Positions 7,845 to 7,967 of a stretch of DNA of 32,000 bases are shown here, one piece after another. The notes under the pieces are model-generated. The model was not told the DNA's origin. It searched no databases and worked only from the letters and a program-made list of their open reading frames with translations. The translations under genes and the position numbers were made by a program. Origin of the DNA: Dickeya solani IPO 2222 (lineage in GTDB: Bacteria; Pseudomonadota; Gammaproteobacteria; Enterobacterales; Enterobacteriaceae); NCBI RefSeq assembly GCF_001644705.1, contig NZ_CP015137.1:3270001-3302000 (forward strand), written 5' to 3'. Positions within the stretch are counted from its first letter, which is position 1; each line of letters begins with the position of its first letter.

Positions 7845-7967
7845 TTACTCTTGCCACTCTTTATTAGAAACCATGCAAGTGACATCCAGCAGAATTTCAT
7901 TTTCAGCTTCAGTATTTTCTGCATTCAGTTCAGCAACGGCCAACTCTAATTCTTGAGCCTTATCCAT
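7845..7967 (-). CDS. Unannotated 40-aa ORF, candidate RiPP precursor peptide: MDKAQELELAVAELNAENTEAENEILLDVTCMVSNKEWQE
   Basis: Hand translation of the minus strand. The ATG at 7967 has an AAGGA SD 7 nt upstream, and the TAA stop is at 7845-7847. It is the first gene of the operon and is followed by a hairpin. The N-terminal part is acidic and looks helix-prone; the C-terminal part holds the single Cys. Confidence 0.6.
   Translation of the reverse strand: MDKAQELELAVAELNAENTEAENEILLDVTCMVSNKEWQE

Follow-up and report, generated by a model that had tools for sequence, protein, structure and literature searches.

A StdA-like precursor peptide ending in SNKEWQE at the head of an MNIO/YcaO operon in Dickeya solani

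The precursor gene and the operon that it heads

The minus-strand open reading frame (ORF) at positions 7845-7967 of a 32,000-nucleotide stretch of the Dickeya solani IPO 2222 genome (contig NZ_CP015137.1 of assembly GCF_001644705.1, forward-strand positions 3,270,001 to 3,302,000; hereafter the window, the whole stretch of DNA that was analysed) very probably encodes an orthologue of StdA, the precursor peptide on which the std pathway of Streptomyces thermodiastaticus JCM 4840 acts (Hebron, Shriver, Ziarek and Rosenzweig; PMC13174530). As the precursor of a RiPP (a peptide made by the ribosome and modified after translation) of the std type, it would comprise a leader of residues 1-33, the core SNK and the follower EWQE. 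The ORF is the first gene of a minus-strand operon, extends from an ATG at 7967 to a TAA at 7847-7845, and translates to the 40 residues MDKAQELELAVAELNAENTEAENEILLDVTCMVSNKEWQE, of which eleven are acidic (D2, E6, E8, E13, E17, E20, E22, E24, D28, E37 and E40) and two are basic (K3 and K36), with the sole Cys at position 31. A preliminary description of this DNA had reported an ORF of 40 codons with AAGGA 7 nucleotides upstream, the same numbers of charged residues and the single Cys31, all of which proved exact on recheck. It had also called the ORF unannotated, which is true of the track that its reader was given, although NCBI has the exact 40-mer on 73 contigs under the name 'MULTISPECIES: hypothetical protein [Dickeya]'. 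Searches of Pfam and NCBIfam with the peptide returned nothing significant.

Along the minus strand the acidic leader, which includes the non-conserved Cys31, occupies 7869-7967, the core Ser34-Asn35-Lys36 with the predicted modification sites occupies 7860-7868, and the follower Glu37-Trp38-Gln39-Glu40 together with the stop codon occupies 7845-7859, a cut being predicted after Lys36. The Shine-Dalgarno sequence AAGGA lies on the same strand at 7975-7979, exactly 7 nucleotides 5' of the ATG, and AAGGAAA is kept in D. undicola and Xenorhabdus despite the divergent upstream DNA around it. Over the roughly 270 nucleotides directly 5' of the ATG, identity with D. undicola is 84%. About 70 nucleotides upstream of the ATG, a promoter-like site (TTGACA-17 nt-TAATAT; 8036-8064, minus strand) agrees with the consensus at 10 of 12 positions and is by that match a candidate promoter, the count of such sites in the region being not above shuffle expectation. 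The 66-residue ORF at 8370-8570 on the minus strand, in the AT-rich spacer 5' of the precursor, was considered as a second peptide or regulator and rejected; it is not conserved in D. undicola, has no family match and is probably spurious.

Six nucleotides past the precursor stop codon begins a minus-strand stem-loop, GUGGCCGC-UAU-GCGGCCAC (7820-7838), with a folding energy of -19.1 kcal/mol (z = -4.6; none of 200 shuffles equally stable). Xenorhabdus keeps this element with a compensatory change of the outer pair from G-C to A-U. Scanning an MNIO alignment over one genome per species yielded ten loci (L001-L010), and four of these, L004, L005, L006 and L008 (Paraburkholderia, Pseudomonas, Burkholderia and a Polyangiaceae metagenome-assembled genome, MAG), carry unrelated strong GC-rich hairpins in the same place. 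A terminator scan did not call the stem-loop an intrinsic terminator; it has no T-tract and is therefore read as probably a partial terminator or a transcript-stabilising element that raises the ratio of precursor to enzymes. An Rfam scan of the window gave zero matches.

The remaining genes of the operon follow on the minus strand. Next to the precursor lies the gene for a rhodanese-ThiF/MoeB E1-like adenylyltransferase/sulfurtransferase of 361 residues (6658-7743; Pfam ThiF 1.4e-80, Rhodanese 2.6e-18), followed by one for an 86-residue ThiS/MoaD-like sulfur-carrier protein that ends in AISGG and is assigned by profile matches and its GG end (6382-6642). A partner protein of 194 residues is encoded at 5795-6379 and is taken to be a StdD homologue from its similarity to an ORF of a Streptomyces-type locus; both it and the 86-residue protein exactly match D. 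solani entries at NCBI. The partner matched nothing in Pfam, in NCBIfam or, when searched as a profile, in the PDB. It stands next to the MNIO in nine of the ten genome loci (L001-L006 and L008-L010) and was not detected in L007; its single-sequence AlphaFold2 (AF2) model, with a pLDDT of 36, is unusable. The MNIO (DUF692) oxidase itself, the StdE orthologue, is encoded at 4965-5798 (PF05114, 6.6e-25) and has DUF692, TglH and MbnB as its relatives in the PDB.

The largest gene (1903-4935) encodes a 1010-residue StdF homologue, a fusion of an S8-like subtilase with a NodU-type carbamoyltransferase that matches Carbam_trans_N and Carbam_trans_C. Its N-terminal extension of about 380 residues is subtilase-like, the family profile matching subtilisins as well as 4h6w, a cyanobactin protease of the PatA type (1.8e-13), and in the profile-to-PDB alignment D17, H39 and S191 fall on the subtilisin Asp, His and Ser. 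With this triad kept, the peptidase domain is predicted to be catalytically competent. Pfam Peptidase_S8 is matched by four of eight family members singly, the Dickeya copy on its own being too divergent. The operon continues with a YcaO gene (725-1906; PF02624, 8.9e-39), whose product is a StdG homologue with the McrA-glycine thioamidation YcaO as its best NCBIfam match, and with a TfuA gene (53-721; PF07812, 1.6e-23; NF033432, TfuA-related thioamidation protein) for a StdH homologue. At 1-50 the window takes in the first 16 codons of an MFS exporter gene, the StdI equivalent, the remainder lying past the window edge; it was located by tblastn with the 444-residue D. undicola MFS protein (87.5% identity over residues 1-16, window 50..3), which at full length matches Pfam MFS_1.

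Conservation of the peptide and correspondence with the std pathway

The ORF at 7845-7967 encodes a genuine precursor peptide that is conserved. Searched against proteins, the 40-mer recovered seven relatives of 40 residues from Dickeya, Photorhabdus, an Erwiniaceae genome and other assemblies, all ending in SNKEWQE, and a small ORF with the C terminus S[N/C]KEWQE stands 5' of the MNIO cluster in all eight loci whose upstream DNA is present (Dickeya, Xenorhabdus, Paraburkholderia, Pseudomonas, Burkholderia, Polyangiaceae, Pseudorhodoferax and Arenicellales). A degenerate DNA pattern for NKEWQE followed by a stop codon occurs once in the window and in none of 100 shuffles. Relative to the Xenorhabdus copy, the differences in the ORF are distributed over codon positions 1, 2 and 3 as 8, 0 and 19, with 13 synonymous and 7 non-synonymous codons, and the DNA further upstream is barely alignable; the ORF has a clear coding signature and is under purifying selection.

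In an alignment of 18 orthologues from three phyla (Pseudomonadota, Myxococcota and Actinomycetota) only S34, K36, E37, W38, Q39 and E40 are invariant. N35 is found in 16 of the 18, the EWQE tail in every one, and from one phylum to another the leaders differ in length and are unrelated in sequence. A check that the preliminary description had proposed, for a conserved small ORF in homologous clusters with a stable C-terminal tail, a stable Cys and a variable leader, thus comes out as expected for tail and leader and fails for Cys31. A search of 1.84 billion representative proteins with a profile of the peptide alignment gave four matches, a count that says nothing about family size because small ORFs are rarely called.

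Metagenomes were also scanned for the NKEWQE-stop DNA pattern. The matches listed are mostly chance ones, in which TGG is read as 'stop' or no plausible start codon or leader is present; among them, those with acidic leaders (L025, L047, L049, L056 and L108) adjoin partner, MNIO or GNAT genes, as do L111 and L079, whose leaders are incomplete. One of these, L056 on metagenome contig JAAIGF010175051.1, encodes the identical 40-residue peptide alongside enzymes that share 90-96% identity with their window counterparts; it presumably comes from a Dickeya genome present in a sample from the environment or from a host.

A full-text search for the motif found one matching paper, that of Hebron et al. 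(bioRxiv, May 2026; PMC13174530), in which the std cluster comprises stdA, D, E, F, G, H and I. In vitro, StdGH (YcaO-TfuA) thioamidates the Asn of SNKEWQE, with sulfur supplied as Na2S in the reconstitution, and StdF, in which an S8/S53-like peptidase is joined to a carbamoyltransferase, carbamoylates Lys at its epsilon-amine, giving homocitrulline, and cleaves off EWQE (PMC13174530). StdDE (partner and MNIO) acts last, hydroxylating C-beta and C-gamma of the homocitrulline, and the StdE MNIO leaves unmodified peptide untouched in vitro (PMC13174530). Table S2 of that paper includes D. solani, D. fangzhongdai and Photorhabdus peptides among the StdA orthologues, the MNIO identity being 43.84% for D. 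fangzhongdai and 42.55% for the other two; its text copy garbles the Dickeya and Photorhabdus peptides ('DVTMVSNNKEWQE', 'AELENAEN'), and the status of Cys31 was taken from the sequences of the present analysis instead.

Orthology was checked against L011, a locus of the Streptomyces type with a precursor that has 95% identity to StdA. The MNIO of the window is 41% identical to that of L011 over 275 residues, its full length (E = 2e-77), and the 194-residue partner is 38% identical over 102 residues (E = 5e-14) to the L011 ORF lying between precursor and MNIO. Residues 34-40 of MDKAQELELAVAELNAENTEAENEILLDVTCMVSNKEWQE are SNKEWQE, identical to the StdA signature, and the gene order matches that of std (precursor, partner, MNIO, S8-carbamoyltransferase, YcaO, TfuA, MFS), the sole deviation being the two putative sulfur-relay genes inserted after the precursor. 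It is with this background that the peptide is accepted as the ribosomal substrate of the downstream MNIO, YcaO and carbamoyltransferase enzymes, as had been proposed earlier.

Dickeya and std therefore share the C-terminal SNKEWQE and the order of the downstream enzymes, and differ in several other respects. The Dickeya precursor has 40 residues to the 61 of StdA and its acidic leader is unrelated; rhodanese-ThiF and ThiS/MoaD-like genes stand between precursor and partner; and, to judge from D. undicola L001, genes for a GNAT and an AspH-like protein follow the MFS gene. The host is moreover a Gram-negative plant pathogen that carries the cluster on a low-GC island. Literature searches found no Dickeya-specific study of the precursor cluster. 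The peptide, its motif and the enzyme chemistry are already published, with D. solani named as a carrier of the orthologue, and the present account is in these respects a rediscovery and not the description of a new object.

Predicted route and the residues that it modifies

The modified residues are almost certainly Asn35 and Lys36 within SNKEWQE, and not Cys31; by analogy with std, the Asn35 carbonyl is predicted to be thioamidated and Lys36 to be carbamoylated and then beta,gamma-bis-hydroxylated. In the route proposed for Dickeya, the rhodanese-ThiF enzyme would first adenylate the Gly-Gly end of the 86-residue ThiS/MoaD-like protein and convert it to a thiocarboxylate. TfuA would then pass the sulfur of the carrier to YcaO, which would activate the Asn35 carbonyl with ATP and produce a thioamide between Asn35 and Lys36. 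Next the 1010-residue enzyme would carbamoylate the Lys36 epsilon-amine to give homocitrulline, and its subtilase-like domain would cut off EWQE after residue 36. The leader (residues 1-33), presumed from the analogous system to bind the 194-residue partner, would dock there as the MNIO adds hydroxyl groups at C-beta and C-gamma of the homocitrulline, by then the C-terminal residue, and the MFS pump would finally export the product. The second to fourth of these steps have been observed in vitro for the Streptomyces orthologues (PMC13174530) and are extended to Dickeya by orthology. Since no position ahead of Ser34 is conserved, the end product is probably very small, a molecule derived from SNK.

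The preliminary description had listed Lys among several candidates for carbamoylation, and this suggestion is borne out insofar as Lys36 is invariant and its counterpart in the orthologue that has been characterised undergoes carbamoylation (PMC13174530). With the residues so assigned, the targets for mutagenesis become Asn35, Lys36 and the Lys36|Glu37 cleavage site, in place of Cys31 or the C-terminal carboxylate.

Several points weigh against this assignment to the std type. All of the chemistry ascribed to Dickeya is transferred from a 41%-identical system described in one in vitro preprint that is not yet peer-reviewed. The Dickeya peptidase domain has no Pfam S8 match alone, its Asp motif is DSA and not DSG or DTG, and the oxyanion Asn is replaced by His. 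The carrier is assigned from a marginal profile E-value (1e-3) and its GG end, and its single-sequence AF2 model, with a pLDDT of 45, is likewise unusable. Lastly, Dickeya-type clusters have extra GNAT and AspH-like oxygenase genes that are absent from std, and the product may differ accordingly.

It is this last point that leads to the strongest competing view, in which the precursor is the same and the end product is another. In D. undicola L001 the segment 15731-20192, the equivalent of which lies just beyond window position 1, encodes the MFS protein, a GNAT, an Asp/Asn beta-hydroxylase-family (AspH-like) protein, a 170-residue ORF and an AraC regulator. A GNAT gene is present in the clusters of L001-L005 and L008, which are proteobacterial and myxobacterial, with a weak match (24%) in L009. 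The AspH-like gene is found in or beside the operon in Dickeya and Photorhabdus, and a DUF6445/2-oxoglutarate (2OG)-like gene takes its place in Xenorhabdus, Paraburkholderia, Pseudomonas, Burkholderia and a deltaproteobacterial MAG. None of the three occurs in the Streptomyces std gene list. The SNK core of Dickeya could on this evidence be tailored further or differently, for example through Asn beta-hydroxylation by the AspH-like protein or acetylation by the GNAT, and the Streptomyces product would then be an intermediate-like analogue. The conservation of the GNAT across L001-L005 and L008, the embedding of an oxygenase gene of one type or the other in or next to the operon and the lack of these genes in the Streptomyces list all favour such a view. 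Set against them, the extra genes lie outside the window and are linked to the peptide by position only, and the GNAT could serve self-resistance instead of tailoring. A different end product is accordingly possible, if on balance somewhat doubtful, and what novelty remains lies in the proteobacterial extras: the proposed dedicated sulfur relay, the GNAT and the 2OG-type oxygenase.

A much less favourable case can be made for the view of the preliminary description that the MNIO acts on Cys31, in the manner of the methanobactin, TglH or bufferin systems, with a core in the tail beginning DVTCMV. Cys is indeed the target of most of the first-characterised MNIOs (introduction of PMC13174530), and Cys31 is kept in Dickeya, an Erwiniaceae genome and several further assemblies. 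The substrates of Cys-modifying MNIOs (MbnA/methanobactin, TglA, bufferins/captophorins and ChrA) resemble the Dickeya peptide in being short precursors encoded beside a DUF692/MNIO and its partner, but the Dickeya-type core has no conserved Cys. Column 31 of the 18-orthologue alignment holds Cys in only five peptides, confined to the Dickeya/Erwiniaceae branch, and Ser or Gly replaces it in Photorhabdus (…ASGVSNKEWQE) and Xenorhabdus (…TGVVSNKEWQE), the clusters of which have the enzyme set of Dickeya apart from the type of oxygenase. The MNIO of the window, moreover, scores far below the cut-offs of the BufB, ChrH, ApyH, HvfB and MbnB models of NCBIfam (at most 75 bits) and is not a member of the MbnB, BufB, ChrH or HvfB equivalogs (34-75 bits; cut-offs 310-600); it is orthologous to StdE, which hydroxylates the non-proteinogenic residue homocitrulline. 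Modification of Cys31 by the MNIO is on these grounds very unlikely.

Proposed sulfur supply, the SCKEWQE branch and genomic setting

The E1-like enzyme had likewise been considered as acting on the peptide, through adenylation of its free C-terminal carboxylate at Gln-Glu. There is a precedent in ThiF-like enzymes such as MccB, which adenylate precursor C-termini (PMC12596934), and the Dickeya operon resembles the microcin C (MccA/MccB) and PaaP/PaaA systems in encoding a ThiF-like enzyme beside a small precursor peptide. MccB and PaaA, however, have an N-terminal RRE 'peptide clamp' (PMC12596934), whereas the N-terminal domain of the Dickeya enzyme is a rhodanese and the protein passes the NCBIfam MoeB cut-off (NF006444; 511 bits vs 449). 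Its invariant features are the rhodanese motif C71-x-S-G-x-R-S with the active-site Cys, GAGGLGS, and C282xxC285 with C356xC358 (a Zn-Cys4 site). Unlike those systems, it also has a separate GG-ended carrier encoded next to it. The C terminus of the carrier is AI[S/A]GG in all seven orthologues, with GG invariant; its profile matches ThiS/MoaD (4n6e_B, E = 1.1e-3) and CysO (3dwg_C) end to end, within a range of 1e-3 to 2e-2, and a UniRef entry labels it MoaD/ThiS family. The NCBIfam MoaD match is weak (E = 0.069), and there is no significant match in Pfam or NCBIfam. E1 and carrier always occur together, both being present in L001-L006 and neither in L007-L010 or in Streptomyces std, where the EWQE tail is nonetheless kept; related clusters whose peptide has that tail can do without the E1. 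The tail is in any case removed proteolytically in vitro (PMC13174530). Adenylation of the peptide by the E1 is thus highly improbable, slightly more so even than modification of Cys31. A last alternative, that the precursor is a chance ORF in AT-rich intergenic DNA and is not translated, has in its favour the shortness of the ORF, its lack of a Pfam or NCBIfam match and its position in a stretch of 40% GC where short ORFs are common, but is effectively refuted by the cross-phylum conservation with a shared seven-residue tail, the bias of substitutions to the third codon position and the conserved Shine-Dalgarno sequence, with nothing comparable in the neighbouring 66-residue ORF at 8370-8570.

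The economical reading, to return to the std-type pathway, is that the rhodanese-E1 and the GG-ended carrier would constitute a dedicated sulfur relay feeding TfuA and YcaO. It is favoured by the domain content of the two proteins, by their co-occurrence and by the published model of a ThiS thiocarboxylate acting with TfuA: thioamide-forming YcaOs outside sulfidic habitats are described as using a thiocarboxylated ThiS homologue together with TfuA (PMC13063428, citing Liu et al. 2021). The McrA thioglycine system, as cited there, provides a parallel in its pairing of YcaO with TfuA, for which the best NCBIfam matches of the Dickeya proteins are the McrA-thioamidation models, and Dickeya encodes a ThiS/MoaD-like GG carrier and an E1 alongside. 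The two systems differ in that the carrier and the rhodanese-fused E1 of Dickeya are dedicated genes of a RiPP operon, the bond to be thioamidated lies between Asn and Lys of a small peptide, and use of the carrier is predicted.

In two of the loci the precursor departs from the SNKEWQE pattern. Those of L009 (a Pseudorhodoferax MAG; 8995-9291 and 7721-8188) and L010 (an Arenicellales MAG; 9002-9217, 7225-8250 and 8247-9011) end in VVVSCKEWQE, with Asn replaced by Cys, and in each a second MNIO match lies just 5' of the precursor and neither a ThiF nor a carrier gene is present. The second MNIO of L010 is an ORF of 341 residues (PF05114, 5e-23), followed by a 254-residue ORF of no known family that could be a second partner. 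Within the std family these loci may form a sub-branch that modifies Cys, with chemistry at this residue taking the place of the Asn thioamide or being added to it. Taken as a whole, and with slightly less than even confidence, the form found in Dickeya, Photorhabdus, Pseudomonas and Burkholderia might be regarded as a distinct and more elaborate std variant, with a thiocarboxylate sulfur supply from the E1 and ThiS-like protein and tailoring by a 2OG-type oxygenase and a GNAT, that yields a small thioamide/dihydroxy-homocitrulline antimetabolite of plant and insect pathogens, the SCKEWQE precursors of L009 and L010 forming a separate sub-family of Cys chemistry. If this is true, the cluster-encoded supply through the rhodanese-E1 and ThiS-like protein would rank as the first case of an MNIO RiPP operon with a sulfur relay dedicated to it.

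The RiPP operon (window 1-8700) has a GC content of 40-48%, compared with about 60% in its flanks (about 61-64% in 8700-13000), where the flanking genes encode a member of the ornithine cyclodeaminase family, a D-Ser dehydratase-like protein and a LysR regulator. This low-GC island suggests horizontal acquisition, with which the near-identical gene order in Photorhabdus and Xenorhabdus is in keeping. A second, unrelated biosynthetic locus is found at 13956-19116 of the window. It includes two genes for isonitrile synthases of the PvcA/DIT1 type, one of them fused to a TauD/PvcB-like dioxygenase, along with genes for a HAD hydrolase and an MFS_3 exporter, and looks like a cluster for an isonitrile (isocyanide) metabolite.

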